A DNA stretch of 43,679 nt. It comes from a virus. Its lineage: Duplodnaviria > Heunggongvirae > Uroviricota > Caudoviricetes. A model generated the notes under the pieces. That model ran no database searches. It worked only from the letters and a program-made list of their open reading frames with translations, and was not told where the DNA came from. Below are positions 16,526-33,531 of the stretch, one piece after another. How positions within the stretch are numbered: the stretch's first letter is position 1; every line of letters starts with the position of its first letter. A program made the translations under genes and the position numbers. Where the stretch lies: the IMG/VR virus record IMGVR_UViG_2711768009_000009; one strand, given 5' to 3'.

Positions 16526-18569
16526 AGTTCCCTCCGTTCCAGACGTTCACATCCAGGCCATGCTGTGCGGTATCATCCACATCAATACTGCGCGCCCGCC
16601 AGCCTTCAGGGGCAACAAGCTCCACCCGTGCGGCGGTTTTCGCGGTGGCCTGTCCGCCGTTTTCGTCACTGCCGCCACGCAGTTTCTGCCAGGCCTGCGT
16701 CAGCCAGCCCCCCAGATAATCACCGAGATAGCTGCCCACCGTGGAACCAATGGCAACCCCGACCGGACCGGCAGCCGCCCCCAGCGCGCCACCGGCGATA
16801 CTTCCGGCAAGGGAACCCACGGCACCGGCTTTATCGGCTGCACTGGCGCTGCTGTCCAGCAGTACAGGAGCCGCCATGGCACCGGCCCACAGGGCACCAC
16901 CACCCAGCCGACCGGCACCACGGAACAGCCCGGCAAAACGCCCCAGCCCCATGCGGTTTCCGGCCGCCGTTAGCAGACCACCGGCACGGCTCATCATACG
17001 ACCGAAGAAGCCCTGTTTACCGGCACTCTCCGCCAGTTGCTCACCGGCAGTCACGACGGTCGTGACACCCCGTCCACGTCCGGGGCCGCGTTTTTTACGG
17101 CCGCGCACGGTTTTGCCGTCACCGCTGACCACCACATCCCCGCCACCTGAGGCCAGGCCACCCGCAGGCCAATTGGTGACCAGCACGGGCTGAACGGCAG
17201 CCGGATTTACCCCGGTAAGGAAATTCAGGAACCGGCCAGCGCGTCCGGGCTGCGTTCCCGGTACAGTGGTCTGCGGTTTGCGGAAGGGCGACGTCAGCAC
17301 GGAGGTCATCGCCATGCCATAGCGTAAGGGGGTTGCGCCGAGACGTAATGCCCCCGTCCCCGCAAACCTGAGCACCTTCAGCGCACGGGAGGCGAGATAC
17401 ATATACATCAGGTACTTTGCGGCGGTCTGCGCACCCTGACCAATGCGATCCAGCGCATCGCCATAACCGGCGTCGCGCAGTGCCTGAAGCGTTTCCCTGA
17501 CTTTCTGAATGACCCGGTAAAAGCCGGTCGCAGCGTCTCTGGCATACTCAAATCCCTGATTCAGGGCTGAGGCCGTCTGTGTGGCCAGCTTATCCTGTAA
17601 GCCGCTTTTCTGTGCCGCATCAGCATAATCCAGAAAGCCTTTCAGGCTCTTTTTCAGGCTGTCAAACGGTCCCTTTGCCATCACCTCGCGGGCAAATCCG
17701 TCCCAGACATCGCCCATCATGGACGTCATTCCCGTCCAGGAATTCATGGCGTTTTTCTGGGCACCTTTTGCCTGTTCGGCCATCACCTGAAATAACAGGC
17801 GAATGCTGTCCGGTCCCAGTTTTCCTTTCTCGCCTTTCTCACGGATGATCTTCTGGTTTACACCCAGCTTATCGGCCAGCAACTGGTAAACGTTAATCCC
17901 GTATCCGGTCAGAATATTGGCGTCCGCTGCCTGGATACTCTGGCGGGCAAACATCTGTTTGAGTTGCAGGGACGCACCCTGTGCATCTGACAGTGACCAG
18001 CCGTGATAGCCGCCCTGATCCTGAAGCATGGTAATAAAGCGACGGGCTTCCCTGTCACTCATACCGAACCCGCGACTGGAGGCGTATTCCTGCATAACCC
18101 CCGCCAGCCCCCAGGTGGTGTCTTTGGCGTTCTGTACCGCCCAGGCTTTCACTGCTTCCGTTTTTGCCGTATCGCCATGATTAATGGCGTTGAGACGCAG
18201 AATATAGTTCTCCATCTCTGCGGCCGGGCGGATAAAGGCTTTATTAAACCCGTAGACCGCAGCCCCTCCCGCCAGCATCCCGTAAAGGTTGCTTATCCGC
18301 CCGATGGTGCCGGTAATGCTGCCCTGAAGGCGGTCAAAATCTGACGTCACCGTGCGGATACTGCCACGAACACCGGCAAGCGTTCGCTGCATACGGGAGC
18401 CGACAAGTTCTGTCTCCTGACCGGCACGACGTGCTGCATTTCCAAGACCACCCAGCCCCGTCCTGCCGGAACGGGAGAATGCCCCCAGCTCCTGTGACCA
18501 CTGGCGGGATTTGGCAGAAATATTGCCGAGTAAATCGACAATCAGGGAGGCTTTCAGGTTTTTTGCCAT
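16512..18569 (-). CDS. Tail tape measure protein (685 aa)
   Basis: ORF track; long Ala/Gly-rich protein between tail chaperone and N-like gene. Confidence 0.8.
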   Translation of the reverse strand: MAKNLKASLIVDLLGNISAKSRQWSQELGAFSRSGRTGLGGLGNAARRAGQETELVGSRMQRTLAGVRGSIRTVTSDFDRLQGSITGTIGRISNLYGMLAGGAAVYGFNKAFIRPAAEMENYILRLNAINHGDTAKTEAVKAWAVQNAKDTTWGLAGVMQEYASSRGFGMSDREARRFITMLQDQGGYHGWSLSDAQGASLQLKQMFARQSIQAADANILTGYGINVYQLLADKLGVNQKIIREKGEKGKLGPDSIRLLFQVMAEQAKGAQKNAMNSWTGMTSMMGDVWDGFAREVMAKGPFDSLKKSLKGFLDYADAAQKSGLQDKLATQTASALNQGFEYARDAATGFYRVIQKVRETLQALRDAGYGDALDRIGQGAQTAAKYLMYMYLASRALKVLRFAGTGALRLGATPLRYGMAMTSVLTSPFRKPQTTVPGTQPGRAGRFLNFLTGVNPAAVQPVLVTNWPAGGLASGGGDVVVSGDGKTVRGRKKRGPGRGRGVTTVVTAGEQLAESAGKQGFFGRMMSRAGGLLTAAGNRMGLGRFAGLFRGAGRLGGGALWAGAMAAPVLLDSSASAADKAGAVGSLAGSIAGGALGAAAGPVGVAIGSTVGSYLGDYLGGWLTQAWQKLRGGSDENGGQATAKTAARVELVAPEGWRARSIDVDDTAQHGLDVNVWNGGNYGLY

Positions 18570-18572
18570 GGG

Positions 18573-18767
18573 TTACTGCTTCGTTCTGAGAATTTTTTCG
18601 GTCTGTCGGCAGTGCCGGTAAAGCTGCGATAAGGGGAGGTTAAGCGCCCACTCCGGGCCGCTTTTTGTCACCATCCCCAGCACAATTGCGGCTTCTTCAA
18701 TCTGATCCCGGCACTGCATCTGGTCGCCCCCGTTCAGCGACCAGCTTTCCGGCCATCGCGGAATCAA
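18573..18767 (-). CDS. Overlapping-frame ORF between tail chaperone and tape measure: possible frameshift extension of the chaperone or small independent gene (ATG MQCRDQ... about 48 aa)
   Basis: ORF track; shares 70 bp with the 3' end of 18697..19173 in the +1 frame; GGGGG RBS-like run before an internal ATG. Confidence 0.3.
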   Translation of the reverse strand: MIPRWPESWSLNGGDQMQCRDQIEEAAIVLGMVTKSGPEWALNLPLSQLYRHCRQTEKILRTKQ

Positions 18768-19173
18768 GCAGGCTTACTGCCGCCATCAGTCGGGAGAGAT
18801 CGCGCTCGCTGAGCTGTCCTATCTGACGCGGAGACAATGGCCCCTCAATCTGGCCGACAGCGGCAATCTGACGGCGCAGCAGCGCAATGCCGCGCAGTGC
18901 CGGTGAGGCCACAAGAACCGGACCGTTTCGGGTTTCCATAAGACGCTCGGCCTCGCTCTCCGCATCAATGCTGTCTTTTGCCGTCAGTTCGCGGAAGGTG
19001 ACGCGGTATTCACGGGATTCCCCGAACGGCAGACCGTCGAGCAGATCCACATAGCCGTTCGCCAGTTGTTCAGCCAGCCCGGCGGTGCGGGGATCGCCGT
19101 CTTCAAGTGCATCCCGGATAGCCTCCATCACGGCCTCGTCAGAAACCGCCGTTTTTTTCTTACGTGTGCTCAT
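18697..19173 (-). CDS. Tail assembly chaperone, Mu gp41-like (158 aa)
   Basis: ORF track; acidic protein between tail tube and tape measure genes. Confidence 0.6.
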   Translation of the reverse strand: MSTRKKKTAVSDEAVMEAIRDALEDGDPRTAGLAEQLANGYVDLLDGLPFGESREYRVTFRELTAKDSIDAESEAERLMETRNGPVLVASPALRGIALLRRQIAAVGQIEGPLSPRQIGQLSERDLSRLMAAVSLLDSAMAGKLVAERGRPDAVPGSD

Positions 19174-19187
19174 TACATTTTTCCTGA

Positions 19188-19553
19188 TTACTGGACACGG
19201 GTACTGGTGGCGCTGGCGAACTTCGCGGAGATATCACCACCACCGTCAAGCGAGGCCGGTTCACTGCTCCAGGCCTTCGTCATCATGTGGACTTCACCGG
19301 TATCGGCCACGAACTCAATCGTGACCGCAGTCCAGGTGTTGATTTCATCGGCAGCCGGTGAACCTTCTCCGCCCGCCGGGAATTTACAGTCCAGCGTCGC
19401 CTCACGGGGTTTCTCGCGATAGCCGTAAACTTTCGCGCCTTTCACCACTTCACGCTCAAAGCCGGACGGGGAGAACGTGGCCCCCTCAAGGGTGTCGTAC
19501 TCCTGCCCGTTCACACGGATGGTGGCCGTGCCCTGATACTGTTTTCCGCTCAT
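19188..19553 (-). CDS. Tail tube protein, Mu M-like (121 aa)
   Basis: ORF track; directly downstream of the sheath gene. Confidence 0.7.
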   Translation of the reverse strand: MSGKQYQGTATIRVNGQEYDTLEGATFSPSGFEREVVKGAKVYGYREKPREATLDCKFPAGGEGSPAADEINTWTAVTIEFVADTGEVHMMTKAWSSEPASLDGGGDISAKFASATSTRVQ

Positions 19554-19561
19554 GCCTTACC

Positions 19562-21064
19562 TCACAAAATGAAACGGATCTGCGCGGCCATGAAGCGGAA
19601 CTGGTTAACCAGATCCGGTGTACACATCACATCCAGACGGTTACGGTCTTTTGTGTTGCGCTCCACGAGCAGATTCTTTTTAAAGGTGTCCAGATTTTCG
19701 ACCAGTCCCAGATCCACCCATTCTTCCCCCAGCGAAATTAACTGAAGTTTCATGATCTCCGGTGTCACGATATTCTGACCGGCACGAACGGGCGTCCCGT
19801 CATCAGCCAGTTTATGGCGCGGAAAACGCTGCGTGATAAAGGTGCGCAGGGAATAACGCAGATATGACAGGGTGTAGATGGTTTCCACATCCAGATAGCT
19901 GGGATCGATTTCGCCGTATGCATTCTGACGGTACATCGTCACCTGACGTTCAATCTGCACCACATCCGCGGCCGCGACGGTCACCGTGGACATGCCGGTA
20001 TAAAGCAGGCTGTTTCGCTCTTCCCGCGTCAGACGATCCGGTGCTTCAGGTGCCATACGGGCAGGCAGCGCCAGTGTCTGTAATGGTCGGGCCGGATCCG
20101 TTGACAGGGAGGGCGCACAGACCGCACAAATGGAGGCAGCCCAGACATAATCCGGCTCTGGTGCTTTAGGAATAGAAGTGCAGGTAAACAGGAAGTCATT
20201 ACGGGATTCACCAAAACTGGTTGCCGTACCGAAGGTGCCGGTATGCGCCATCCAGACCATACCGTCCGACATTTTTACCGGTCCCCAGCGTTTCAGCAGT
20301 TCATCCGCCAGAATTTTGAGATTTGCCGCATCCTTATAGGGCATGACGATGTAGTTGTACTGACGATTCCCCATCCCTGAGACGCTACGGGTGATATCGG
20401 GGTTTGTTGCCTTCTGTGTTGGCGCGACGAGCTCCAGCGTAAGACCGGCCGGTGTAGTTTCACCGTCATAATAGTTCACCCGTAAATCATGAGCTGAGCA
20501 TTCACCGATAAAGCGGGCGTTAACCCCCATGCTGCCTTTAAGTCCTTCAGCATTATCACCACTGACTTCAGCTGCGATAGCAGTGAATGGCGCATCAGTG
20601 TCAGCGTTAATGACCTTAGCCAGCTCTTCCACAAGCTCTTTACCTTTTTTCCCCTTACTGACGGGCAGGAGGTAACGGCGACCGCCGATGTAAACACTTA
20701 ACACCCCGTCTGCCAATGCTGTTCCAATGATATTCATCACGCATGCCCTGGACTGACCTGTTCCAGCCCCCTGTGCAATGGCATATAACTCTGTGTCAGG
20801 GTTAATGGCGATAAATTCCTCTACCATCAGTGCAATCATGGAACCTCGCCCCCAGAGTTCTCTTGCTTGTGAAGCTCGGGTAATACGTACTGGTACATCA
20901 AGCTGACCGCGCCCCTGAATGGTAGTGTCTTTCATTGCAGCCTGACCAAACAACAGTACCGCCTGACGCTGTGGTGGAGTGCCGGTCACGGCCATTGAAT
21001 TATTGATTTCAATCTGTACCAGCGGAATGCGATTGTTATCGCCGATATAATCAAAGTTAATCAT
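19562..21064 (-). CDS. Contractile tail sheath protein, Mu L-like (500 aa)
   Basis: ORF track; size and position. Confidence 0.85.
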   Translation of the reverse strand: MINFDYIGDNNRIPLVQIEINNSMAVTGTPPQRQAVLLFGQAAMKDTTIQGRGQLDVPVRITRASQARELWGRGSMIALMVEEFIAINPDTELYAIAQGAGTGQSRACVMNIIGTALADGVLSVYIGGRRYLLPVSKGKKGKELVEELAKVINADTDAPFTAIAAEVSGDNAEGLKGSMGVNARFIGECSAHDLRVNYYDGETTPAGLTLELVAPTQKATNPDITRSVSGMGNRQYNYIVMPYKDAANLKILADELLKRWGPVKMSDGMVWMAHTGTFGTATSFGESRNDFLFTCTSIPKAPEPDYVWAASICAVCAPSLSTDPARPLQTLALPARMAPEAPDRLTREERNSLLYTGMSTVTVAAADVVQIERQVTMYRQNAYGEIDPSYLDVETIYTLSYLRYSLRTFITQRFPRHKLADDGTPVRAGQNIVTPEIMKLQLISLGEEWVDLGLVENLDTFKKNLLVERNTKDRNRLDVMCTPDLVNQFRFMAAQIRFIL

Positions 21065-21342
21065 CAGGACGTCCCCTTATCTGATGCTGCGGTTTTTTCA
21101 GCCACCGCCGCAGTTTTTTCTGCTACCGCTCCCGCTGGTTTTGCCGCCGCGCCGGTATTAGCAGTTGTGGCAGCCGGGGCAGGCTCCGCCGTTTTATCCA
21201 CCACAATGACGTCGCCATCATTAAGACGGCGGCACCAGAACGGAGTGAAGGGTTTCTCTTCCCCGTCCTGAGAGAGCGGAGTCATCGTGTCGGGATCGCG
21301 GATCAGGCATCCCGGCGCAGGTTTAATAAAAATGGTTGTCAT
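21064..21342 (-). CDS. Mu gp38-like small protein with Ala/Thr-rich tail (92 aa)
   Basis: ORF track; position only. Confidence 0.5.
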   Translation of the reverse strand: MTTIFIKPAPGCLIRDPDTMTPLSQDGEEKPFTPFWCRRLNDGDVIVVDKTAEPAPAATTANTGAAAKPAGAVAEKTAAVAEKTAASDKGTS

Positions 21343-21345
21343 CTG

Positions 21346-21909
21346 TTATTCCTCTGACAGTCCGGCGTTTTCACCGGCGGCAGTTGCACCAGGCAGACGG
21401 ATGTGTGCCTTAAATTCCGGCGTGCCTTCCGGTTCGGTAAAGGTTTCGTAATGGCGCAGGAAATCATCCAGCGAGCTGATATCCGTCAGCGGGTCGATCA
21501 TTTCCTCGCATGAGAAATACAGGGCGTACATCACGGCACCGCTGCCTGCCTGCGTTTCGGTGTAACCGTTGACCGCCTTTTCAAAGTAAAGCGGTGAGGT
21601 TTTTTCTGCTCTGAAGCCGTCCAGCACGGTAATCAGGCGGGCCACAATCTGATAAAGCCCGGGACGGCTGACCTCACGGCCATTGAGCATGTCGCCGATG
21701 ACGTAGAACACCCAGTGACTGACCAGACGCCCACGGGTACGCCCTTCACCGGCACCCAGCCAGGCAACATAGATAGCCGGGGCGTTAATCAGCATGGTGC
21801 GCAGTACGCTGTCGCTCCAGTCGCCGGGATGTGTGTCAACAGACACCAGTTCATTCCCGAAATACTCACGGATACGGGCGATGTACGCCTGCTCGGTTTC
21901 CGTAATCAT
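21346..21909 (-). CDS. Mu gp37-like head-tail joining protein (187 aa)
   Basis: ORF track; position only. Confidence 0.55.
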   Translation of the reverse strand: MITETEQAYIARIREYFGNELVSVDTHPGDWSDSVLRTMLINAPAIYVAWLGAGEGRTRGRLVSHWVFYVIGDMLNGREVSRPGLYQIVARLITVLDGFRAEKTSPLYFEKAVNGYTETQAGSGAVMYALYFSCEEMIDPLTDISSLDDFLRHYETFTEPEGTPEFKAHIRLPGATAAGENAGLSEE

Positions 21910-22325
21910 ATAAAGCCCTTCTGGTTGCGCCCGAACACCGCCGCATCAGACTGCACCTGCGGTAAATCCCCGGATTCAGGGGCCGCACCGTCTGTATCCA
22001 CGCCGACCGGCACGTTACCGTTCATGACATCTTTCAGCCAGGCCAGCGCCTCACGGTAACGGTCACGCGCCTGATCGGATGCCCGCTGATCGCACAGGTA
22101 ATAAAAGGCAATCGTGCAGCAATGCTGAACAAGGACCGCCGGAACCACCGCCAGCGGCAGCGTGTAACGGGAAGACAGATAGCTGTCGATAAGGGCAGAC
22201 GCGTCCGTCAGTGCCCGGTTCAGCTTGCGCGTGTCCGGTTCATCCGAACGGGGCACGGCCAGTAATGGCCTGAGCAAATCCTCGCGGTAACGTGCCCGCA
22301 TATCGGTTTCGGTGGCGTAATTCAT
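21906..22325 (-). CDS. Mu gp36-like protein (139 aa)
   Basis: ORF track; position after major head gene. Confidence 0.55.
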   Translation of the reverse strand: MNYATETDMRARYREDLLRPLLAVPRSDEPDTRKLNRALTDASALIDSYLSSRYTLPLAVVPAVLVQHCCTIAFYYLCDQRASDQARDRYREALAWLKDVMNGNVPVGVDTDGAAPESGDLPQVQSDAAVFGRNQKGFI

Positions 22326-22681
22326 GCGCGCGCCTTTTTCGCCTGTCTGGCGTTATTGCCGGTCTTTTTCCGGGGAGCATCCTGTACGGTTTCGGCTTCG
22401 GCTAAATCTGCACCGGTCTCTGCATGAACCACACCCGCCACGGCTCCCGCATCATCACCAGGCGTCTGTAGTATTCGTACAGTGAGGCATGGCTCCGCTT
22501 CCAGTCGGGCAAGCTGCTCCGGGGTGACGTCAACCTGCTGGCGTCCCCGCATGAACAGGAACCCCGCACGACGAAAATGCGTACGACTGCAACGCACTTC
22601 TGCCAGTACCGTGACAGGACTGTCACCACTGACCTGAAGGCCTGAATCATCTGTTGCTGCCACAGTGTGATGTTCATTCAT
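22322..22681 (-). CDS. Mu gp35-like protein (119 aa)
   Basis: ORF track; GGAGGG RBS; position only. Confidence 0.5.
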   Translation of the reverse strand: MNEHHTVAATDDSGLQVSGDSPVTVLAEVRCSRTHFRRAGFLFMRGRQQVDVTPEQLARLEAEPCLTVRILQTPGDDAGAVAGVVHAETGADLAEAETVQDAPRKKTGNNARQAKKARA

Positions 22682-22724
22682 ATTTGCCCTCCGCAGGGGC
22701 CGGGCCGTAAGCCCGGCTCACCGT

Positions 22725-23672
22725 TTACAGATAATCCGCGACAACCAGCTCCAGCTTGCCCTTCATCTCGTTAGAGACTGTGGCGTTACCGTCTGCGAAC
22801 AGCTCGCGCTCCAGCAGCTGCACCGCCTGTTTTTCCAGCGAGGTGGGGACAACAATATGGGTGGGTTTGATGCCGAGTTTGCGGCCACCGTCAGCCTTAA
22901 AGTCACGCATGGCTGACCAGCCGTGCCACAGCGCATCCAGCGTCAGCGGTGACTGCATCATGTAGGCCATCTGCCAGAAGCCGTAGCCCACATTGCGACG
23001 GGCGGAAGCACCGAACACAAACTCGTTATCAGTAAACGCACGGCCTTCATCGACTTTTGTCTGGGCAACCAGTTCGGCTTTGCGGCGATCCTGATAAATC
23101 AGCGGTTTTACCGCGCGGGAGCAGTCAAGCAGATACCAGGCCGGGCCGCTGTAATCCGCCTGTGCACCGACAGAGCCGGTTTTTGCCACAAACATATTGC
23201 TGACCATCTGTGCATCACCGGAGCCATCCACTTTGGGGTAAACAGGGTGTTCGGTATCAAAGAAGTTCTGGCCGTCATAGCAGGCCGCATTCAGACCATC
23301 ACGCAGTGCAGCAAAGACCAGTTCATCCGGTTGTGCCGCAGCGGCACGACCCATTTCCTGGAATAACGGGGAGTAGATGCCGAGATTGTCGTCTTCAAAG
23401 TCATCGCGGCTAATGGCAACGGTGCCTTCAAAGGTTTTGTTCACGATGGCGTAGCCATAGGCTTTCATCTTCTCGATGACGCGGGAGCCGATCCACTCAC
23501 GGAACTGCGGGAACTGCCCCAGCCAGCCGTAGGTGTTGGATTTCGAGGTGGACGGCACGGTCATCGCAATTTTCTGGTACTGCGACGGAGCCATGGACAT
23601 CCCGGCCTGAAAATCAGAACGGTAGCCCGTCATCAGGGCGGTGATCATCGCCGGTGTAATCGGGGTAGGCAT
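22725..23672 (-). CDS. Major head (capsid) protein, Mu T-like (315 aa)
   Basis: ORF track; size and position after the protease/scaffold gene. Confidence 0.8.
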   Translation of the reverse strand: MPTPITPAMITALMTGYRSDFQAGMSMAPSQYQKIAMTVPSTSKSNTYGWLGQFPQFREWIGSRVIEKMKAYGYAIVNKTFEGTVAISRDDFEDDNLGIYSPLFQEMGRAAAAQPDELVFAALRDGLNAACYDGQNFFDTEHPVYPKVDGSGDAQMVSNMFVAKTGSVGAQADYSGPAWYLLDCSRAVKPLIYQDRRKAELVAQTKVDEGRAFTDNEFVFGASARRNVGYGFWQMAYMMQSPLTLDALWHGWSAMRDFKADGGRKLGIKPTHIVVPTSLEKQAVQLLERELFADGNATVSNEMKGKLELVVADYL

Positions 23673-24805
23673 TATTGCATTTCCTCTTTCATTTTCAGGA
23701 ACTCGGCTTCGGTTTTACCCAACAGACGTGCGGCGGCGATATCTTCAGCCGACAGCACAGCGGTGGCGGTCTTTTTATCCGGCACGGTTACGGTGTCGGT
23801 CTGAAGAGTGGTCAGAGCCGCAACCGGCTGGCGGGCGTCAAGCTGTGCAGAAAGTGCCGCGACGCCAATCTGTTGTCCGAGTCCTTCCATGTATCCGCGT
23901 TCGCTTTTGAAAATGCGTCCTTCGGACTCGGCCTTATCCAGCAACTGCTCCAGCGTGGTGCTGCCGTGTTGTGCCGACAGCGCGGCATATTCGGTACGCA
24001 GGGCGTTATACGTCTCAACGGGCACATATTTCGTCAGATCAATAGTGCCGCCAGTTGGTGTGCCTTTTGCGGTTTCCAGTTCTGCCGACAGGCTGGCAAC
24101 CTGCGTTTTCAGGGTGTCGTGCGCATCCGCACGGGTTTTGATCCCGGTAAGGGCAGACAGCGCCGCCGTGCCCAGTTCCGGTGTAAATTCGTCACCGTCA
24201 GCCACGGTCAGACCGAGCGCCGTCAGCAACTGGCGTAATTGCTCATTCATGGGGGATTGCTCCTGAGAAGGGGAAACGACATAGAGATCATCAGCACTGA
24301 GTGCCGCGACAGGGTTCATACCCGTAATACCCGGATCATTCGTCAGGGAAGCCATGCGCAACAGGTAGGGTTCCCCGGTGTCAGCGAAATAATGCATATA
24401 TGCAGACAGATAGGCATATTCACGGTCATCAATATGTTTTTGTGCCTGTGGTGTCCATTCAGGTTTAATGAAAATCCCCTGACCCTCACGCCATTCGATG
24501 TTTTCCGGCTTAACCCATCCTGCAGCAATAGCCTTGAATCCGTTTTTCTGCGCATTCACGGAGTGATGGTCATAATCAATCAGTAACGGCTGATGCAGGG
24601 CGGAAAGCCCGGCTTTCATCCGGTTACAGGCGGATTCGTTAATCAGCCAGCCTTCAGTCGGTTTTTCCGGGCGACCGTCACGGGCCTTTACCCGACCGGC
24701 TGGCAGTAACTGACACCATCCGTCGCCGGATGCAGTCAGCGAAGCTGAAAGCACGGCTAAACCGGAGGGGCGATTTGCGTCTTTTGGGTGATTTTCTGTC
24801 TTCAT
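23672..24805 (-). CDS. Head protease/scaffold protein, Mu I-like (377 aa)
   Basis: ORF track; size and position. Confidence 0.8.
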   Translation of the reverse strand: MKTENHPKDANRPSGLAVLSASLTASGDGWCQLLPAGRVKARDGRPEKPTEGWLINESACNRMKAGLSALHQPLLIDYDHHSVNAQKNGFKAIAAGWVKPENIEWREGQGIFIKPEWTPQAQKHIDDREYAYLSAYMHYFADTGEPYLLRMASLTNDPGITGMNPVAALSADDLYVVSPSQEQSPMNEQLRQLLTALGLTVADGDEFTPELGTAALSALTGIKTRADAHDTLKTQVASLSAELETAKGTPTGGTIDLTKYVPVETYNALRTEYAALSAQHGSTTLEQLLDKAESEGRIFKSERGYMEGLGQQIGVAALSAQLDARQPVAALTTLQTDTVTVPDKKTATAVLSAEDIAAARLLGKTEAEFLKMKEEMQ

Positions 24806-24982
24806 ACCGGCAGCATAAGCCGGGTATTTTTGGGGCTGGTTTTGCGGGACTTCAGAAAGTGCTGACAGGGGGGGAATGAGAAAGGCGCTTCACGCAGATT
24901 TTAAAGCCCGTTAAATACAGGTTAGAAAATCACGACACGCGCCTGAAGGGGGTAAGGTAATACGTTTGCATACCTTAAACCA
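24806..24982. promoter_or_regulatory. 177-bp noncoding G-I intergenic region at the prophage centre: candidate late promoter P_I and strong-gyrase-site equivalent
   Basis: Only sizeable noncoding gap in the structural module, ~18.1 kb from the left end; Mu carries its central strong gyrase site between G and I; contains hairpins and G/C runs. Confidence 0.4.
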
Positions 24983-25456
24983 TTACGGCGTTTCTGTGGC
25001 CTTTTTAAAGCGTTTTCTGATTTCGTCCATGATCTCCTGTTCTGCCACCTGATCAAAGCCCATATACGGACGTGCGCCAATGGCCGCCGGTCCCGGTGGC
25101 ATACCAGGCAGGCCACCCCACTGATGAATGGCTGCATAAGGTTCATTTGATCCAATCAGCGCCCAGGTATCGCCATAATCCGTGGTCAGGCGGCGGGCCA
25201 GATCGCCGTTCAGCGTCAGGATTTTGCCGGGCGTGTATCCCTTACGGGTACGCCACTCACGGTAAGGATCTGACCAGTCATGCCAGCGTTCACCATCCGG
25301 CTCTTTTTCCTGCTCAAACGCCATTTCTGACGATGACAGAAGACTCGCCGCCACACTGCGGGCCAGGTCTTTTCCGCCGCCCACAAACTGAAGCCGGGCA
25401 AACACTCGCTGGAGACGCGTAACGTCAACAACGACAGCTGCATCAATGGATGACAT
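24983..25456 (-). CDS. Virion morphogenesis protein, Mu G-like (157 aa)
   Basis: ORF track; size and position. Confidence 0.75.
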   Translation of the reverse strand: MSSIDAAVVVDVTRLQRVFARLQFVGGGKDLARSVAASLLSSSEMAFEQEKEPDGERWHDWSDPYREWRTRKGYTPGKILTLNGDLARRLTTDYGDTWALIGSNEPYAAIHQWGGLPGMPPGPAAIGARPYMGFDQVAEQEIMDEIRKRFKKATETP

Positions 25457-25496
25457 ATTGCCTCCGCATAAAGGATGAATATAAAATAAACAGGCG

Positions 25497-25576
25497 GTCA
25501 GTGTACGCTTAACTGGTAAAGTCGGTGCCTGCCTCCGGGTGGATCATGTATGCGGGTTCGACCCCCGCCACTGACC
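25497..25576 (+). other. tRNA-like partial cloverleaf in the F-G intergenic region: 7-bp acceptor-type stem plus T-arm with GGGTTCGACCC loop; no anticodon arm
   Basis: GTCAGTG (25497-25503) pairs with CACTGAC (25569-25575); GCGGG-TTCGACC-CCCGC hairpin at 25552-25568. Confidence 0.3.
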
Positions 25577-25577
25577 G

Positions 25578-26909
25578 TTAATCAATTTGTCCTTCCAGCA
25601 CCTCAAGCATTCCGCCCCGGATATCCGATTTCAGCTTATCCATATTGATAACCCGGTAAGCATTCACAATCACATCCAGTTTGTCGGGCTGACGTTTCAG
25701 ACTGTACGGTGCATTAACGGCAATCTGCACACTGCCATCCTGATTTTCCACGATATACATCAGATTGTTGTGCCGTTTGTCCCACAGTACCGCTTTTGGC
25801 CTTGCCAGCATTGCCGGTAAGCGCCCGAAGTCCTCCGGCGTCAGAGCGATGCCGTCATTCTGATGTTTCACACTGTCCGCATGGAGCACATTTTTACCGC
25901 TCATCGCCAGCAGGCGGGCCGGTGGCGTTCCCGTCCGGCTTTCCACTGCCTGCGCAATGCTTTCAGTCATAAAGCCCAGCGTGCGGATATCGTTACCACC
26001 TCGCCGGGTCTGCATGATGTTTTTTGCCCAGATGCGGAACGCCAGCTGCCGCTCCGGGCTGTTGTTCATCTCCTGAACCACCATTTCCCGTAACGCCGGG
26101 CTTTTCACCTCGATCAGTTTGCGGATCAGCGCCTGGTCTGTGCCGAACGCTGCCGAGCCGGGGTTATATGACCAGCCCACATCCGGTGTCATGGTTCTGG
26201 CGCCATCTGAATATGTGGTCACCGGCATTTCTCTGACTTCTCCGGTCTGTTTATCCACGCCAGCCTCAACATTGCGGGTGGAGAGATGATCCTCACCGGA
26301 TGAAACGGATAACCCCATTGCATCCAGACGGGCCTGAGACAATGGCCGCACACGGCAGCGGCAGTTCCAGCCATTGGGCGGGTAGTGTGTTTTCCAGAAC
26401 GGATCGTCATAGCGGAATACCAGACCGTTAAGGGCGGAATGCGACGGGCGGGTACGGCTGTCCATGACCGCCACATACTGCCAGAACGGATGCGTGTCCG
26501 TGTTGTTCATCATCTGCGTGTAACGCCCGGCATTGTAAGCCACACGGGTGTTCACGTTGTAAATCAGCGCCAGACGACGGGGACTGCCCTGCTGCACTTC
26601 TTCCGCGTTACCGTCGCTGTCCACCACAATCTGCTTTCCCCACCATCCCAGCTTTTGCAGGCGTGGCGTCAGTGTGCGGATAAATTCTTTCTGTGAAATC
26701 CCCTCATCAATGGCCCGCTGCACTTCGGCCTGTAATGTGGTTACCACATCCAGCCGTGCCGTTTTTGCTGCCGTGAATGAGCGGGCATGAACATCCGCGT
26801 CTGTTTCGAACCAGTTCCAGCTGATATGCGCCCCTTTGGCGCGGAAGTATGCCACCGTCTCTTTTGAGGGAAGCGTGGCGGCATAACCTAAATCAATCCC
26901 CTGAGCCAT
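25578..26909 (-). CDS. Head morphogenesis protein, Mu F-like (443 aa)
   Basis: ORF track; size and position after portal. Confidence 0.8.
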   Translation of the reverse strand: MAQGIDLGYAATLPSKETVAYFRAKGAHISWNWFETDADVHARSFTAAKTARLDVVTTLQAEVQRAIDEGISQKEFIRTLTPRLQKLGWWGKQIVVDSDGNAEEVQQGSPRRLALIYNVNTRVAYNAGRYTQMMNNTDTHPFWQYVAVMDSRTRPSHSALNGLVFRYDDPFWKTHYPPNGWNCRCRVRPLSQARLDAMGLSVSSGEDHLSTRNVEAGVDKQTGEVREMPVTTYSDGARTMTPDVGWSYNPGSAAFGTDQALIRKLIEVKSPALREMVVQEMNNSPERQLAFRIWAKNIMQTRRGGNDIRTLGFMTESIAQAVESRTGTPPARLLAMSGKNVLHADSVKHQNDGIALTPEDFGRLPAMLARPKAVLWDKRHNNLMYIVENQDGSVQIAVNAPYSLKRQPDKLDVIVNAYRVINMDKLKSDIRGGMLEVLEGQID

Positions 26910-28482
26910 CCAGCATCCCCTTCATTTCCGCAGCAAACATGGCATCACTGAGCAGCGTCATCAGGCGGGAATCATCCATTTCACGGTAAAGGGCAGGCAG
27001 GTCTGCCAGTGCCTCCGCCAGCCCCCGCGTTCTGATGACATCAATGACCGGCTCCAGCACCGGATCGATGGCCTCCTGTAAGCGGCGGGCAGGCACCGCG
27101 TCCCCCATGTCGTCCAGTTCATCACGCGGCGTGTTTTTCGCTTCCGGCAGTCGGGCTGAAAGCGCCGTCTGTTCTGTCTTTTCCTGTTTTTCCGGTAGCG
27201 TTTCCCTGTCAGGCATGGCCGGTTCATTACTGCTCTGACGGACACGGAATATGGCTTCACCGGGCGTGGGCTGTGGAATACCGGTCTGATCCCGTACCCA
27301 GGGATCAGGAATATCCATCCCCGCACTGAGTTGCATCACCGCACTGGCTATTTTGGTGATATCCCCCGGTTCTTTGGTCTGGAAACAGATACGCGGCAGG
27401 CGACGGATATCAATGGCGTGGGCGGTGTTCAGGGCATACAGCGGATACACCAGATCGCGGTTCAGGGTTGCAGCCAGCTGGCGTAAATCAGAATCCCTGA
27501 TTTCCCGGCGCACCTCGTTATGCACCTCACCCAGCGAGCGCGCGCCTTTGTCTCCGGCTTCTGTGGTCAGCGTGCCGCCGAGTATTGCTTTGGAGATGGA
27601 ACGCTCACCCCACGAAATCATGGTTTCAAACGGATCGGCCTGACCGTTCGCTGCCGCCTGAAACTCCAGCGACATCCCGGCCGGGATGATCCCGCCTGTA
27701 CGTCGCCCGATATCCATCACCGCCCGCATCAGGGCACTTTTCTGCTCCGGTGTTGCCCCGGACGGGTATTTCCCGACCTTCATTGGCAGGCCGTACACCT
27801 CCAGAAATTCCGCCAGATCGCGCACGGAATAGTTTTTGAAAATGAACGGCCAGATAAGCGTTCTGACAAGCCCCGTCGCACCACCGTAGCCGGTGCGTGA
27901 ACGCGACTGATGCACTATCCAGCCAAAGGGCTGAAACGCCACCCCGGCATGGCTGCCGTCACGCAGCCGCAGTTCGCTCAAATCATCCGGGTTAAGGCAG
28001 AAATGCCCGCTGTCACGCCAGCGGATGGCGCGGATGATGTGCATTTTACCGAGCATCCCGTGCTCAATTTCCATGCAGGAATAGCCCTTCAGGATGGCAT
28101 CCGTGGCGTCAAACAGCATGGCATCAAACCAGTCTGCGGAATGCAGATATTCGTCGAGCATTTCCGCGTCCTTTTTCTCATTCGCGCTGGCGTTCGGTGG
28201 CGGCTCAATACTCCATGGCACCCCCTGAATGGCAAGACGTCGCTTGCCCAGCTCCGCAAAAAGGTGGGTGTCCTTTTCTTCAATATCAGCGGCCAGATCG
28301 GACTGGGCAATCAGATCGCCACGTTCAGCCCCGCGAAGGCACTGCGCCGCCCGGTTCGGGGTGATACCCGAAGCCGGATGTTCAATATAACGGCTGGCAA
28401 TCTGCGGAATATCCAGCGCGGCACTCTGCATCTCCGGGTCAAAGGAGAAAGGTTTTCCGTCAGTATCAATGATGCGTCCCAC
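26893..28482 (-). CDS. Portal protein, Mu gp29-like (529 aa)
   Basis: ORF track; size and position after terminase large subunit. Confidence 0.85.
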   Translation of the reverse strand: MGRIIDTDGKPFSFDPEMQSAALDIPQIASRYIEHPASGITPNRAAQCLRGAERGDLIAQSDLAADIEEKDTHLFAELGKRRLAIQGVPWSIEPPPNASANEKKDAEMLDEYLHSADWFDAMLFDATDAILKGYSCMEIEHGMLGKMHIIRAIRWRDSGHFCLNPDDLSELRLRDGSHAGVAFQPFGWIVHQSRSRTGYGGATGLVRTLIWPFIFKNYSVRDLAEFLEVYGLPMKVGKYPSGATPEQKSALMRAVMDIGRRTGGIIPAGMSLEFQAAANGQADPFETMISWGERSISKAILGGTLTTEAGDKGARSLGEVHNEVRREIRDSDLRQLAATLNRDLVYPLYALNTAHAIDIRRLPRICFQTKEPGDITKIASAVMQLSAGMDIPDPWVRDQTGIPQPTPGEAIFRVRQSSNEPAMPDRETLPEKQEKTEQTALSARLPEAKNTPRDELDDMGDAVPARRLQEAIDPVLEPVIDVIRTRGLAEALADLPALYREMDDSRLMTLLSDAMFAAEMKGMLDGSGD

Positions 28483-30149
28483 TACCAGCCCCCCCGATCA
28501 AATTCATGATATGCCTCATCGTCATCACGATAACCGCCCTCCATTGCCCGCGACCGCTCCTGTAGCGCCTGACAGGCTGATTCATCCAGGATGAAGCCCT
28601 CCATGTATGACGCCCGGTTTGCCATACAGAGCGCCACGGCAAAATCACCATGGCGGCGGGCGTTCGCAGCCGTTGCGTTCTGGTCCTTCGTGCGCCCCTT
28701 GTCGATTTGCGGGATACCATTCACTACCTTCACATGGCGCAAATCATCAAGCGTGGTCTGATGGCGGGCGACGAGGATATTCTGATCTTCAAACTCGGCT
28801 TTCAGTTTTGGCATCCACTCGCCGTACCACTTCGGCGACAACATCACGCAGTCGATGATGTCCGGGCCAAAGGCCAGCAGTGCGGCCTCTGCCAGATAGC
28901 CGCCGTTACCGGTGGCGTCGAACGCCGCACCGACCAGCGCCGGAACGCGGGTCAGGATGTACATCATCACCTGTTCCTGCTGGGCATACGGCAGGTTGCG
29001 CAGCTCCACGCGAAACACCTCGCGCTTTGCCAGGGATTCGGTGATTTCCAGCAGCACAAAGCAGGACAGGTCACCGGTGCGGGCAAAGTCTTCCCCGAAG
29101 CTGAAGCGGGAACGGGGATTTAATTTCTCTAAAAGCGGTTTTAAATGTTCTTCACACCAGGTTAAAACTTCCGATTCACGCAGCCATGCGGCACGGCTGA
29201 TGAAGTTGTCCGGGGCTTCAAACGTCAGAATCGGGATGTCGCGGATCATCGCCATTTCAATAAGCGCGTGGGGGATATAGGCACCGCCGGATTTTTTCGG
29301 GATACAGCCGTATTCCTCGTCGGCATCCTCACGGGTCGGGGCGTTTTTGTAGAGATCATCACGCCATTTCTGCTCGCTTTCCGGTGACCATTCCTGATCG
29401 GTGACGTAACAGATACGACGGTACAGCCCGTCCGCAATGGCATCATCCAGGGTTATGCGGTGGACGCTGTAATCCTTGCGCCCCTCGCGGGCTTCCTGAA
29501 TGTACTGATTAAACAGATTATCGACGCCGTTATGCGTGGAGATAATACGCACGCGCGCGCCCCACATAGTGAGCGCCATTGCCGCCTTGAGAAGCTCATC
29601 CAGTGACTCGTGGAACGCGGCTTCATCAATCACCACATCCCCCTGAAGGCCGCGCAGGTTTGACGGACGGGAAGACAATGCCTGAATTTTGAATCCACTG
29701 TTCGGAAAGCGGATCATGTAGGTCAAAATTTCTTCTTTTTTATCCCGATCCCAGAATGTCTGCTCATACACATCAGCATCTGCCAGCTGGTTAAAGGCAC
29801 GGGAGAACAGCGCGCAGGCAGAAATATATTCCAGCGCCATCTCCTGCTTTGATCCCACATAAAACACATTGCGGCCACCACGACGCTTCGGTTTTGCAGC
29901 AGTAATGACGTTACGCCCGGCTTCCGCCCAGGTAAGACCGGTGCGGCGGGATTTCTCCGCGATGCAGACCTGACTTTCATCTGCAAACCAGCGGGCCTGA
30001 TAATCCAGAAACACCGGCATATCACCGGGCAAATCAAGGCTGTCCGGCACATCCACGCCCAGCAGGGCTTTTTCACCTGACAGATCAATTTTGCGGGGAG
30101 GCGTCATTTGCATCAGTGAAGGCGACGTTTCTCTGGCTTTGTTCATCAT
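28482..30149 (-). CDS. Terminase large subunit, Mu gp28-like (555 aa)
   Basis: ORF track; ...GDVVIDEAAF... Walker-B-like motif; size and position. Confidence 0.85.
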   Translation of the reverse strand: MMNKARETSPSLMQMTPPRKIDLSGEKALLGVDVPDSLDLPGDMPVFLDYQARWFADESQVCIAEKSRRTGLTWAEAGRNVITAAKPKRRGGRNVFYVGSKQEMALEYISACALFSRAFNQLADADVYEQTFWDRDKKEEILTYMIRFPNSGFKIQALSSRPSNLRGLQGDVVIDEAAFHESLDELLKAAMALTMWGARVRIISTHNGVDNLFNQYIQEAREGRKDYSVHRITLDDAIADGLYRRICYVTDQEWSPESEQKWRDDLYKNAPTREDADEEYGCIPKKSGGAYIPHALIEMAMIRDIPILTFEAPDNFISRAAWLRESEVLTWCEEHLKPLLEKLNPRSRFSFGEDFARTGDLSCFVLLEITESLAKREVFRVELRNLPYAQQEQVMMYILTRVPALVGAAFDATGNGGYLAEAALLAFGPDIIDCVMLSPKWYGEWMPKLKAEFEDQNILVARHQTTLDDLRHVKVVNGIPQIDKGRTKDQNATAANARRHGDFAVALCMANRASYMEGFILDESACQALQERSRAMEGGYRDDDEAYHEFDRGGW

Positions 30150-30394
30150 GCTTTACCTGTCAGAATGCTTTTGATTCGGGACTCAAGCTCTTCAGTCATC
30201 ACGTCCACGCCGCTCAACTCATCAGTGGCAGCCTCTGCCAGCAGCGAATGCAGTTGTTCCAGGGATATTTCCCCGGCAATGCTGAGTTCAGTCAACTCAC
30301 GACATACCTTTATGGTTTCAGGAGGTAACTGTGTTGCAAGACTGAATGCTTTCTGATGGGCACTGCTCATCAGTGAGCGGTTATCTGTTGCCAT
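30146..30394 (-). CDS. Hypothetical 82-aa protein whose last ~28 residues duplicate the C-terminus of the upstream small-terminase-like protein
   Basis: ORF track; ...AATDELSGVDVMTEELESRIKSILTGKA vs ...AVTDELRGVDGMSEQIEFRIRQMLLGKA; DNA also ~85% identical over this stretch. Confidence 0.5.
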   Translation of the reverse strand: MATDNRSLMSSAHQKAFSLATQLPPETIKVCRELTELSIAGEISLEQLHSLLAEAATDELSGVDVMTEELESRIKSILTGKA

Positions 30395-30404
30395 GATTCA
30401 CCTC

Positions 30405-30986
30405 CTACGCCTTACCCAGCAGCATCTGCCTGATACGGAATTCGATCTGCTCGCTCATGCCATCCACGCCGCGCAACTCATCGGTGACCGCATTCGCCAT
30501 CTCTTCAGCAAATGCGGCCCGGATTTCTTTTTCACGCTTAATGCTGCGCTCGGCGGCACTTTCTGCACGCTGTGCCGACAGGAGGATGTCCTTAATAAGG
30601 CGCATATCCACATCGCTGTCGCTGTTCAGGGATTCGGTGGCGGCACGCAGACGGCGGTACATCAGGGCACGGGACATCTCCAGAATCAGTGCCGTGGTTT
30701 CACCGGTCGGCTTATCCCCCAGTTCGGCCATCATGGCTTTTGTCTGCTCGCGTAAATCACGCAGATTACGGGCAATCAGCTCATTACGGGAGGCTTCCCG
30801 GCTGATGGCCGCCGGTGAGAGCTGCTGCTCTTCCGGCAGACCTGCTTCACGGATCAGACGGTTGATTTCCTCGCGGATCTGGACCTGCGTCAGACGTTTT
30901 TCACGCAGCATTTCCAGCAGCGGCTTACGGATGCTGTCGGGGAGCAAATCCACCTTGCGTACACGGCCACGCGCTGGCTTATCCAT
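30405..30986 (-). CDS. Putative terminase small subunit, Mu gp27-like (193 aa)
   Basis: ORF track; basic N-terminal DNA-binding-like region; immediately upstream of the large terminase. Confidence 0.6.
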   Translation of the reverse strand: MDKPARGRVRKVDLLPDSIRKPLLEMLREKRLTQVQIREEINRLIREAGLPEEQQLSPAAISREASRNELIARNLRDLREQTKAMMAELGDKPTGETTALILEMSRALMYRRLRAATESLNSDSDVDMRLIKDILLSAQRAESAAERSIKREKEIRAAFAEEMANAVTDELRGVDGMSEQIEFRIRQMLLGKA

Positions 30987-30988
30987 CG

Positions 30989-31279
30989 TTACCCCCTTGC
31001 GCGTGGTTTCTTCACACCCGGAACGGTGGCGCGGCCTTCCGCCACATCCTGACCCCGGCCGGTCAGTTCAGCGATGAAATAACCGTTAACAAGCGTGCGC
31101 TTACGCACCAGTCCCTGCTCGGCAAGCCAGGCAATGTGGGTATGAACGGTGTCGCGGGACACGCGGTGACCGTAATCATCCAGGCAGTCCTGAAGCACGG
31201 ATTCGCCCAGTTCGCCGTTGTAATCCGCCAGCGACCGCAGAATGACAAGACGCTGATCTTCAGTAATGAAATCACTCAT
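30989..31279 (-). CDS. Mu gp26-like small protein (96 aa)
   Basis: ORF track; position only. Confidence 0.5.
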   Translation of the reverse strand: MSDFITEDQRLVILRSLADYNGELGESVLQDCLDDYGHRVSRDTVHTHIAWLAEQGLVRKRTLVNGYFIAELTGRGQDVAEGRATVPGVKKPRARG

Positions 31280-31583
31280 TGTGTTTTTTCCTTACAGCCT
31301 GCTCCAGCAGCAGTTCGTTCTGATGGGAGACGGATTTCAGGGTGGCATTGGTGGCCTTAAGCTCACCGCGCAGGGTGGTGATTTCGATATTGAGTCTGTT
31401 CACCTCCTGCTGCGTGGGCAGGCCGGAAATCCGGCTCTCCACCCGCTCAACCCGGTCGGAGAGTTTTTCAAAGGCCTCGCGGGGGACAAAGGTTTTGCGC
31501 ATCAGCGCCATGAAGATCCCCCCGGCTGTGGCCGTTGCCGACAGGATCGGCACGACATAATCTTTAACGATGCTGACCCACAT
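31272..31583 (-). CDS. Membrane protein with N-terminal TM helix and coiled coil, Mu gp25-like (candidate endolysin release factor), 103 aa
   Basis: ORF track; hydrophobic N-terminus VVPILSATATAGGIFMALM; position at the end of the lysis cassette. Confidence 0.5.
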   Translation of the reverse strand: MWVSIVKDYVVPILSATATAGGIFMALMRKTFVPREAFEKLSDRVERVESRISGLPTQQEVNRLNIEITTLRGELKATNATLKSVSHQNELLLEQAVRKKHNE

Positions 31584-31791
31584 GACCGGCCTCCATGATG
31601 TTCTGGCAGTTCACACAACGGATGGCATCCGGCACGGCAACCAGACGGGCAGCCGGAATGTCACCCCCGCAGTCCGCGCATACACGCCTGCCCGGTGTCT
31701 CCGCCACCCGGCGCTTACGTGTCAGCCGGTCACAAAGGGCGCGTTCTGTTGCACGCTCCATGACTGCCTGAGCACAATCTGAATCATCCAT
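31564..31791 (-). CDS. TraR/DksA-family C4 zinc-finger protein (75 aa from internal ATG MDDSDCAQ)
   Basis: ORF track 31564..31857; CxxC...CxxC pattern RVCADCGGDIP...IRCVNCQ typical of TraR/DksA. Confidence 0.65.
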   Translation of the reverse strand: MDDSDCAQAVMERATERALCDRLTRKRRVAETPGRRVCADCGGDIPAARLVAVPDAIRCVNCQNIMEAGHVGQHR

Positions 31792-31801
31792 ACCTTTTTC
31801 C

Positions 31802-32173
31802 TTACTTCGTCTTTCCTGCCGGAACAGCAGTCGTTCCGGCCATATCAGTAAATTCATGCTGTCGCTGTGTCTCCAGACGGCGGATGCTGGCCTTGTCCAC
31901 GTTGCAGTTTTTAATCACCGCCAGCAGTTGCAGGTTGTAAGTGACCGATGCACCAAACGTGAACGGCTGCGGCGCGGGAGGGACCAGGCAGTCAGCCAGC
32001 CATTCAGCGGGGATCGGCACCGGCTTCACCGGCACGTATTTCACAGACGGCCCGCCGCACCCGGTCAGCCACATCATCAGGCACAGGCACAGCGGCAGCA
32101 GGCACCGTTGCCAGTGACCGGCGGACAATGCTCTGCTGTTCCTCGCTGTGCTGCATGTTCTGCTGTTTTTCAT
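31802..32173 (-). CDS. o-spanin (Rz1-like outer-membrane lipoprotein), Pro-rich, starts inside the i-spanin gene in another frame; start uncertain
   Basis: ORF track 31802..32284; lipobox LTGC after hydrophobic stretch, followed by VKYVPVKPVPIPAEW...PPAPQPF. Confidence 0.6.
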   Translation of the reverse strand: MKNSRTCSTARNSRALSAGHWQRCLLPLCLCLMMWLTGCGGPSVKYVPVKPVPIPAEWLADCLVPPAPQPFTFGASVTYNLQLLAVIKNCNVDKASIRRLETQRQHEFTDMAGTTAVPAGKTK

Positions 32174-32354
32174 TCGTGGCCGCCTTGCTGATTTGTGAAA
32201 TGAGTTGCAGGGTGCGTTGCTGGTTTGCCAGCACCAGACGGGCTTCGTCCCGTTCACGCACAAGCACATGATTATTGTCCTCAAGGCGCTGCGTCTTCTG
32301 GTGCATTCCCCATACCACGGCAGCCAGCACGCTCATCACCCCCAGCGCCGCCAT
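32004..32354 (-). CDS. i-spanin (Rz-like), N-terminal TM helix plus coiled coil (116 aa from internal ATG with GGAGG RBS)
   Basis: ORF track 32004..32525; MAALGVMSVLAAVVWGM TM segment followed by charged helical region. Confidence 0.6.
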   Translation of the reverse strand: MAALGVMSVLAAVVWGMHQKTQRLEDNNHVLVRERDEARLVLANQQRTLQLISQISKAATNEKQQNMQHSEEQQSIVRRSLATVPAAAVPVPDDVADRVRRAVCEIRAGEAGADPR

Positions 32355-32466
32355 ACAGCCTCCGGCAATCAGGGCCGGTAAGGGATTGTTCACCGCAGAC
32401 ACAGCACACCCCGCAGCAGCACAACGGCACACAGCAGCGCAATCATGAGCGGTCGCCAGAAGCGGT

Positions 32467-32967
32467 TCAGACTTTCGGCAAATCGTAACGACATAACCAT
32501 TCATCCGCCGAACGGCGGGCCTCAAGACCGGGGAGTTTTACCCCCTTTGAATAAATCCAGCGGATATACTGCTTACAGGACGCGGGCATCTGCCCGGCAT
32601 TGATAAGGCGCAGGAGCGTGGAGTTGCGAAAGTTCGTTTCACCGGCCCAGAAAATCCAGGAGGCCAGCGCCACCGTCTGACCACGGGTAAGCGGCACCTG
32701 AACATGACGATCGATAGCCGCAAAGGCCCATTTCATGTCCTTTTCCAGCAGCTCCAGACACTCTTCATCAGTTTTTGTCATCCCCGGTTTCACATCCGGG
32801 CCGGTATGGCCGTAACAGATGGTGGGGGTGCCGGTGGGATCAATGTACGTGGTGTTTTCTTTCCCTTCCCAGTAGCCGGTGTAGTGCGTGGCAATGGTGA
32901 ACGTCCCGGCTCCGGCCAGAACAAGGGCAATCAGCTTTTTACGCAGGGGTGCGGGGAGTTTTGGCAT
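32467..32967 (-). CDS. SAR-type endolysin, GH24 (T4-lysozyme-like) with N-terminal signal-anchor (166 aa)
   Basis: ORF track; hydrophobic LIALVLAGAGTFTIA then catalytic motif YWEGKENTTYIDPTGTPTICYGHTG. Confidence 0.8.
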   Translation of the reverse strand: MPKLPAPLRKKLIALVLAGAGTFTIATHYTGYWEGKENTTYIDPTGTPTICYGHTGPDVKPGMTKTDEECLELLEKDMKWAFAAIDRHVQVPLTRGQTVALASWIFWAGETNFRNSTLLRLINAGQMPASCKQYIRWIYSKGVKLPGLEARRSADEWLCRYDLPKV

Positions 32968-33038
32968 TGTTACGCTGTCTCATGGTGTTCTCTGAGTCAG
33001 CGTAACCGTGAGGAAAAGGGGGCAGGATTTGCGGAATA

Positions 33039-33461: not shown

Positions 33462-33503
33462 ACCCGCCTCCGGTCATCATTACACAGGGCAAGTTTAAAA
33501 TAA

Positions 33504-33527
33504 AAATCCCGCGCTGTGGCGGGATTT
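33504..33527 (-). terminator. Strong intrinsic terminator of the early operon (9-bp stem AAATCCCGC/GCGGGATTT, loop of 6, then U-tract on the minus strand)
   Basis: Minus-strand RNA reads hairpin followed by UUUUUAUUUUAAA; lies between the gemA-like stop and the Mor/C-family start. Confidence 0.6.
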
Positions 33528-33531
33528 GGGG

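Follow-up and report, generated by a model that had tools for sequence, protein, structure and literature searches.

The 177-bp noncoding region between the virion morphogenesis gene (G) and the protease/scaffold gene (I) of an Escherichia coli Mu-like prophage likely acts as a compound control region that combines a Mu-type gyrase site, a hairpin overlapping the arm of that site, and an activator-dependent late promoter. We hold the promoter part with greater confidence than this overall reading and the gyrase function with somewhat less. The region covers nt. 24806..24982 of the whole stretch of DNA that we analyzed (the window, 43,679 nt), exactly the interval that the first-pass annotation had described as noncoding, and is flanked by G (24983..25456, 157 a.a, 54% identical to Mu G and annotated by PGAP as a "phage virion morphogenesis protein") and I (23672..24805), both on the minus strand. 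That annotation had proposed a central strong gyrase site and a late promoter for this region. The first proposal is supported by an order of parts shared with Mu, similarity in the distal arm of the site, and an arm identical to that in the Sp18 prophage, and the second by an activator box and −10 hexamer with Mu geometry ahead of both I and lys, together with a C homologue encoded by the phage.

The prophage occupies nt. 4351..43033 of the window (38,683 bp), has its genes on the minus strand, and is a close relative of Sp18 (O157:H7 Sakai). Its ends (4351/43033) were mapped against copies of the same phage inserted elsewhere (strain HH35) and against Sp18, position 43033 being the left (repressor/transposase) end. 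The gene order around the gap (H, F, G, I, T) is that of Mu. The distances from the midpoint of the gap to the left and right ends are 18.1 kb and 20.5 kb, respectively (fraction 0.47), in agreement with the earlier placement of ~18 kb from the left end near the prophage center; the annotated gyrase cut of Mu lies at 17879 of 36,717 bp (fraction 0.487). Prophages in six complete E. coli genomes match the 600 bp around the gap at 100% identity, and related copies occur in 228 of 5,426 complete E. coli genomes, with up to four G-I regions per genome. In strain HH35, the same phage (99.4–100% identical over the compared stretches) is inserted elsewhere, and, from its different insertion sites and multiple copies, the phage appears to be active. 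We also noted a target duplication of 4 bp in three independent insertions (the window prophage, the HH35 copies L003/L004, and Sp18, L098), compared to 5 bp in Mu; in the phage orientation, these read GACA in the window (ends at 4347..4354 and 43030..43037), TACG in HH35, and TAAA in Sp18. The left end of the window prophage starts with 5′-TA and that of Sp18 with 5′-TG, and the right end of the window prophage closes with ...GCTATA, not ...CA.

According to the list of open reading frames in the window, no frame of at least 30 a.a lies wholly within 24806..24982, in keeping with the first-pass description of the junction as empty of inserted genes. A hidden gene in the gap was considered and ruled out, given this lack of a contained frame and the presence of indels among close relatives. 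In the latter, the gap ranges from 175 to 177 bp, a variation in length as expected of noncoding DNA. The G/C runs reported earlier are present as a C5 run (24947–24951) and a C7 run (24868–24874), both as read on the minus strand. The C7 run sits between the hairpin and the promoter box, and its neighborhood accounts for the 175–177 bp length differences as well as many of the substitutions among close relatives. No RNA family was found by Rfam inside the gap; as RNA, the whole gap folds better than its shuffled versions (z −2.87, 0/200). In a prophage of Edwardsiella anguillarum (L006, 2981..3656; the same in L050), the G-I gap measures 676 bp. Its insert separates the gyrase-site arm from the I promoter and carries, on the reverse strand, a 117-a.a open reading frame whose N-terminus is hydrophobic. 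The first-pass annotation had named this slot as a host of anti-CRISPR genes in Pseudomonas phages.

The gap had also been called the only sizeable one in the structural gene block. It is the largest, but gaps of 121 bp (F-G, 25457..25577) and 127 bp are present as well, the latter lying between the tail-assembly-chaperone gene and the tape-measure gene. By analogy with gp41/56 in Mu, the 127-bp gap is probably a frameshift extension of the chaperone.

In Mu (AF083977), the G-I gap is annotated, in order, with the gyrase cut (17879/17880), a predicted terminator, and the late promoter PI. The window shares with the Mu strong gyrase site (SGS) the flanking genes G and I, the central position, and the order of core, right arm, hairpin, and PI, in a gap of 177 bp versus 196 bp in Mu. 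Directly after the G stop codon lies a dyad core (TAAGGTA-N11-TACCTTA, 24953..24977), whose 7-bp stems (24953–24959 and 24971–24977; RNA fold −9.0 kcal/mol, z −2.3) are those of the inverted repeat already recorded in the first pass. This core is predicted to be the gyrase G-segment, with cleavage near 24959–24964 and the 3′ end of G as the putative left arm; in an ungapped alignment, the Mu cut (C^AGCC) falls opposite G^TATT at 24963/24962, which would place the cut in the window there. The right arm of the predicted site (24886..24952, minus strand) is marked by the profile match described below, identity to Sp18, and phased AT blocks. These blocks (GATTTTCTAA, TATTTAA, and CTTTAAAAT) have TpA steps spaced 11 and 10 bp apart with GC-rich spacers between them, comparable to the phasing of about 10–11 bp in the homologous distal right arm of Mu.

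Alignment with the Mu G-I region, which had been suggested as a check on the gyrase site, gave a divided result, as the distal right arm is similar to that of Mu and the core/cleavage region is dissimilar. A single well-conserved block was found between Mu and the window gap (CGCG..CG.GATTTT..AACC.GTATTTAACGG), and it lies about +25 to +60 from the cut, as placed on the 133-bp Mu SGS fragment (Sutormin et al.), in the right arm, which published work describes as the essential part of the Mu SGS. Conversely, the core/cleavage sequence in the window is unrelated to that of Mu (ATAAAATC^AGCC), and the arm lacks the first AT block of Mu (TTTTTTAAAACGCG) and has one more distal block (CTTTAAAATC). 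Phased AT-rich tracts are also typical of binding sites for IHF, Fis, and HU, on which domain formation in Mu depends besides the SGS (PMC3820752), and the blocks in the window might bind one of these, or a phage protein organizing the prophage domain, instead of gyrase. We regard this as highly unlikely, given that, in Mu, gyrase leaves an extended DNase I footprint on the right arm and the T-segment lies within this arm in the cryo-EM structure.

To place the Mu-type gyrase site in a wider context, G-I junctions were gathered across 7 genomes and 80 viral contigs (G identities 29–100%), and a profile was derived from 42 distinct junctions at 40–90% G identity (observed 41–74%), without the Mu clade. 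Common to all 42 was the arrangement TTTTAAACGC-N8-GATTTTTAAAC-N3-TTTTAAACGG, ungapped and starting about 25–45 nt past the G stop codon. As a positive control, this profile found the SGS as the single top match in the Mu genome, with a score of 38.5 compared to 1.0 for a 1-nt-shifted overlap and −1.5 for the next independent position, which indicates that the method works. In the window, the full profile scored 5.8 at the homologous position (24970..24906, minus strand), the best match on its strand and the second overall, with columns 41–65 contributing +21, columns 1–20 contributing −13.4, and columns 21–40 contributing −1.8. Scored by itself, the distal arm (columns 29–65) reached 24.0 at 24942..24906, with the next best match at 12.9 and none of 300 shuffles reaching 24.0. 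Judged by these scores, the distal arm is a significant homologue of the Mu-like arm, and, given the negative columns 1–40, the core and first AT block have been replaced in this clade. The first block TTTTAAAACGCG is replaced by CCCCCTTCAGGCGCG in the window, making its arm a variant. The overall best right-arm profile match in the window (8.7) was found in the mirror orientation on the plus strand (24960..25024), beginning in the same core and entering the end of G (GGCCTTTTTAAAGCGTTTTCTGA, encoding ...IRKRFKKA). The left arm in this clade may thus have wrap signals too, or the mirror match may arise incidentally from the coding sequence.

A local nhmmer search with the family profile had its best match at the right place, covering 17 nt of the arm (E = 0.36), and the ungapped full-length profile was more informative. 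The periodicity of A/T versus G/C at 10–11 bp placed the Mu arm in the top 0.1–0.6% and the window arm in the top 1–2.6%, which supports the reading as a gyrase site and is not decisive. By identity to the published 133-bp Topo-Seq consensus, the window site ranked in the top 0.39% and the Mu SGS in the top 0.56% of the Mu genome; as the SGS of Mu itself was not singled out, this proxy is not discriminating. Together, the two generic gyrase-site proxies placed the region only in the top 0.4–4%.

Within the clade, we noted 3 variable sites in the 60-bp arm across 18 haplotypes, compared to 10 in the next 20 bp. The arm is about as conserved as the G coding sequence, and the core (including the loop of the dyad) and the spacer vary among close relatives. 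As read from this variation, the constraint is on the distal right arm and not on the core, in agreement with Mu genetics.

The G-I region in Sp18 shares 90% identity with the window over 228 bp and is identical from the right flank of the core through the 60-bp arm (CCTTACCCCC...GCGCCTTT); the same right arm also occurs in the Mu-like insert of an Stx phage. The Sp18 site lies at about 18.3 of 38.8 kb and has the same promoter box and −10, but differs from the window at two or three bases of the core-dyad loop (ACGTA vs. ATGCA) and by many changes in the C-run/spacer and the 5′ end of I. The central gyrase site of Sp18 is said to have been tested by Oram and Pato (J Bacteriol, 2004), who reportedly observed strong, specific quinolone-induced cleavage and enhanced processive supercoiling. 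According to the review by Toussaint and Higgins (PMC10052514), Pato tried alternative gyrase sites at the center of Mu, of which only the SGS from the Mu-like O157:H7 Sakai prophage promoted replication of Mu. This result, obtained with a near-identical relative and not with the sequence in the window itself, is the strongest argument for a functional site here. The site in the window is essentially the Sp18 site, and only the constraint pattern (on the distal arm, not the core) and the predicted leaderless start discussed below go beyond the prior description.

Given that the core is not conserved with Mu (profile columns 1–28 contribute about −15) and varies among close relatives, the gap could be read as a decayed remnant, in which the core has diverged, the first block has been lost, and the strong gyrase function is gone, leaving the promoter as the functional part. 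This is very unlikely, as the same arm in Sp18 has been reported as functional in Mu and the left arm and core in Mu tolerate change (both PMC10052514), the arm is nearly invariant across the 18 haplotypes, and the phage occupies several sites and occurs in multiple copies. We thus retain the reading of a gyrase site with a conserved distal arm and a replaced core.

The right arm overlaps a composite hairpin (24883..24944, or 24874..24944 with its tail, minus strand), comprising an outer stem (AGGCGC/GCGCCT), a middle stem (GUGAUUUU/AAAAUC), and an inner stem (CCUG/CGGG), followed by UUUCUCAUU. Its RNA fold is stable (−23.7 kcal/mol, z −3.73, 0/200 shuffles), the stem is long and branched, and the tail is moderately U-rich. 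A simple terminator scan made no call at the hairpin, with the loop above its limit and the U-tract weak. The Mu counterpart, annotated as a terminator, shares this topology (−19.8 kcal/mol, z −3.15), and the hairpin in the window is probably the terminator of the lys-to-G transcript.

An alternative explanation takes the gap as a mere boundary between transcription units, composed of an intrinsic terminator and the I promoter, with the AT blocks being parts of the hairpin and having no gyrase role. The stability of the composite hairpin and the U-rich run after it, the terminator annotation of its equivalent in Mu, and the presence of a GC stem and T-run in or just past the arm in every lineage all fit this explanation. 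However, the GC stems are built from different segments across lineages, in or after the arm; for example, the hairpin lies downstream of the arm in L005, and the last block forms the 5′ stem arm in L087. The phased TTTAAA/TTTGAA pattern and its spacing, rather than the pairing, are conserved without gaps, and genetic work in Mu shows this same arm to be needed for gyrase action (PMC10052514). Given that terminator and gyrase roles are also compatible, we consider a boundary without a gyrase role unlikely and favor a gyrase site that shares its right arm with a probable terminator. A conserved RNA structure as the main cause of arm conservation was likewise rejected, as stems drawn from differing segments indicate that the conserved feature is the phased DNA pattern and not a fixed RNA pairing. 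Conservation of the arm could still partly serve the RNA, since the arm overlaps the terminator-like hairpin.

Downstream of the hairpin lies the predicted promoter PI, consisting of a C-type activator box (TTTCTGAAGTCCCGCAAAACCAGCCCC, 24832..24858, minus strand), recognized by its repetition in the phage and its Mu-like placement, and a predicted −10 hexamer (TATGCT, 24812..24817, minus strand) at a fixed spacing to the box. The pattern TTTYTGA-N4-CCGCAAAW has exactly three mismatch-free matches in the window, each on the coding strand of the phage, and these precede I, lys (33027–33045), and a cargo gene at the right end (8822–8840). Allowing up to 2 mismatches yielded no further match in the window, and none of 100 shuffles gave three. 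The boxes read CCGCAAAACC in the gap and CCGCAAATCC ahead of lys and are followed, exactly 30 nt on, by TATGCT and TACGCT, respectively. In the four annotated late promoters of Mu, CCATAACCCC starts 30 nt upstream of a fixed −10 hexamer, and this spacing, counted from the first C of CCGCAAA to the −10, is also found at Plys in the window and in 20 lineage variants. No −35 hexamer is present at PI, and a promoter scan found no full sigma-70 consensus promoter in the gap. A candidate −10 region suggested by a first alignment with Mu (CCCGCAAAAC) was rejected, as the recurrence of this sequence ahead of lys and its constant distance of 30 nt to the −10 identify it as the activator box.

Directly upstream of lys, the phage encodes a C homologue (33039..33461, minus strand, 140 a.a), which is 40% identical to Mu C and 28% identical to Mor. 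Mu C binds an element centered at −43.5 (PMC2582627) and does so as a tetramer over about 26 bp (bioRxiv 2025.05.02.651988), which fits the 27-bp box. With a −10 lacking a −35, a box starting 30 nt upstream, and an encoded C homologue, PI resembles the Mu late promoters. In contrast, the proximal half-site is CCGCAAA in the window and CCATAAC in Mu, and two of the six DNA-contacting helix-turn-helix residues listed for Mu C (bioRxiv 2025.05.02.651988) are changed in the window protein (Q116S and R120N), substitutions that would be consistent with the changed half-site. On this comparison, PI would be a C-type, activator-dependent late promoter.

The third copy of the box (8795..8840, minus strand, TTTTTGAATTTCCGCAAAA) is accompanied by a −10 (TATTCT) at 29 nt and lies upstream of a 684-a.a DUF6645 gene (6705..8759) near the right end of the prophage. 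By analogy with mom in Mu, C probably drives late expression of this cargo gene. Upstream of the C homologue (33462..33531, minus strand), we also noted a degenerate box with 3 mismatches (CCCCAAATCCCGCCAC), which overlaps a terminator-like hairpin (CCCGC..GCGGG and a T-run) and resembles the Mu middle promoter Pm. The annotation of this phage includes a single Mor/C-family gene.

The −10 of PI ends 6 nt before the I start codon (ATG, 24803..24805, minus strand), compared to 32 nt in Mu, and no Shine-Dalgarno sequence is present. Across 20 lineage variants, this distance falls into two classes with none between; ten variants (G identity 41–100%) have 6–7 nt and no Shine-Dalgarno sequence, and the other ten, including Mu, have 28–36 nt with a GAGCAGG Shine-Dalgarno sequence. 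Oligonucleotides designed on the Mu promoter extend 20 nt downstream of the start site as defined by S1 nuclease mapping (PMC4461284), which implies a Mu start 7–8 nt after the −10. The same distance in the window falls on the A of the I ATG, and, thus, a leaderless I mRNA is predicted. Around the −10, we noted an inverted repeat (ACCCGGC/GCCGGT, 24804..24827, minus strand; fold −9.9 kcal/mol, z −2.6), within whose limits lies the short hairpin that had been observed ahead of the I start (CCGGC-N7-GCCGG, 24807..24823). In transcripts reading through from G, this repeat, as RNA, would take the A and U of the AUG of I into its pairing. L005 (GACCG/CGGTC) and L054 (ACCGGC/GCCGGT) have equivalent repeats on either side of the −10.

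From these observations, we infer, at roughly even odds, that transcription from PI begins on the A of the ATG of I to produce a leaderless mRNA, both in this clade and among nine or more further lineage variants, that the repeat at the −10 pairs with the AUG in read-through transcripts, and that translation of I depends strictly on initiation activated by C. We found no description of a leaderless I mRNA in the literature that we searched. The cI mRNA of phage lambda, transcribed from PRM, is a leaderless phage mRNA, and the predicted I transcript likewise begins at the A of the AUG and lacks a Shine-Dalgarno sequence. It differs in that I would be a highly expressed late structural gene under an activator-dependent promoter. 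If the prediction is true, the C-activated initiation on which translation of I depends would take place next to a supercoiling hot spot, with a GC-rich discriminator, and the two classes of I start (leaderless versus leader with Shine-Dalgarno sequence) offer a testable prediction on late gene expression in transposable phages.

Taken as a compound control region, the gap may work as follows. Host gyrase would bind the dyad core just past the G stop codon, with the phased, anisotropically bendable right arm wrapping around the C-terminal domain of GyrA, and would then supercoil the DNA processively. The 38.7-kb prophage would be extruded as a plectonemic loop, at whose apex the site would lie, such that the two prophage ends could meet for synapsis by the transposase. 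The arm-overlapping hairpin would end the late transcript running from lys to G, and the C-type activator would bind its box of roughly 27 bp and recruit sigma-70 RNA polymerase to the −10 without a −35, with initiation at PI starting the I-T head operon. These findings support conservation of the Mu module of a central gyrase site and late promoter in the Sp18-type prophages common in pathogenic E. coli, and the alignment of phased TTTAAA blocks across the family provides a natural data set on gyrase site strength.

The G-I junction also coincides with a mosaic boundary (about 24500..24800 vs. 24983..25300). Among members of the clade, G and the gyrase arm vary at 0–5 sites per 20 bp, compared to mostly 8–16 and up to 28 per 20 bp in the 5′ part of I. 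Most relatives show 80–90% identity to the 600-bp query and 90–95% to the 231-bp gap region.

Finally, the F-G gap has no equivalent in Mu, where F and G overlap. It contains a tRNA-like sequence on the plus strand (25497..25576), antisense to the late genes, which scores 31 bits with the Rfam tRNA model (gathering score 29) and is annotated by PGAP as "tRNA-OTHER"; ARAGORN called no tRNA anywhere in the window. Just upstream, on the same strand, lies a sigma-70-like promoter (TTGCCT-18-TAAAAT, 25458..25487). Similar antisense tRNA-like matches were found in the same gap of L051 (46 bits; "tRNA-???" by ARAGORN), L007, and L053.
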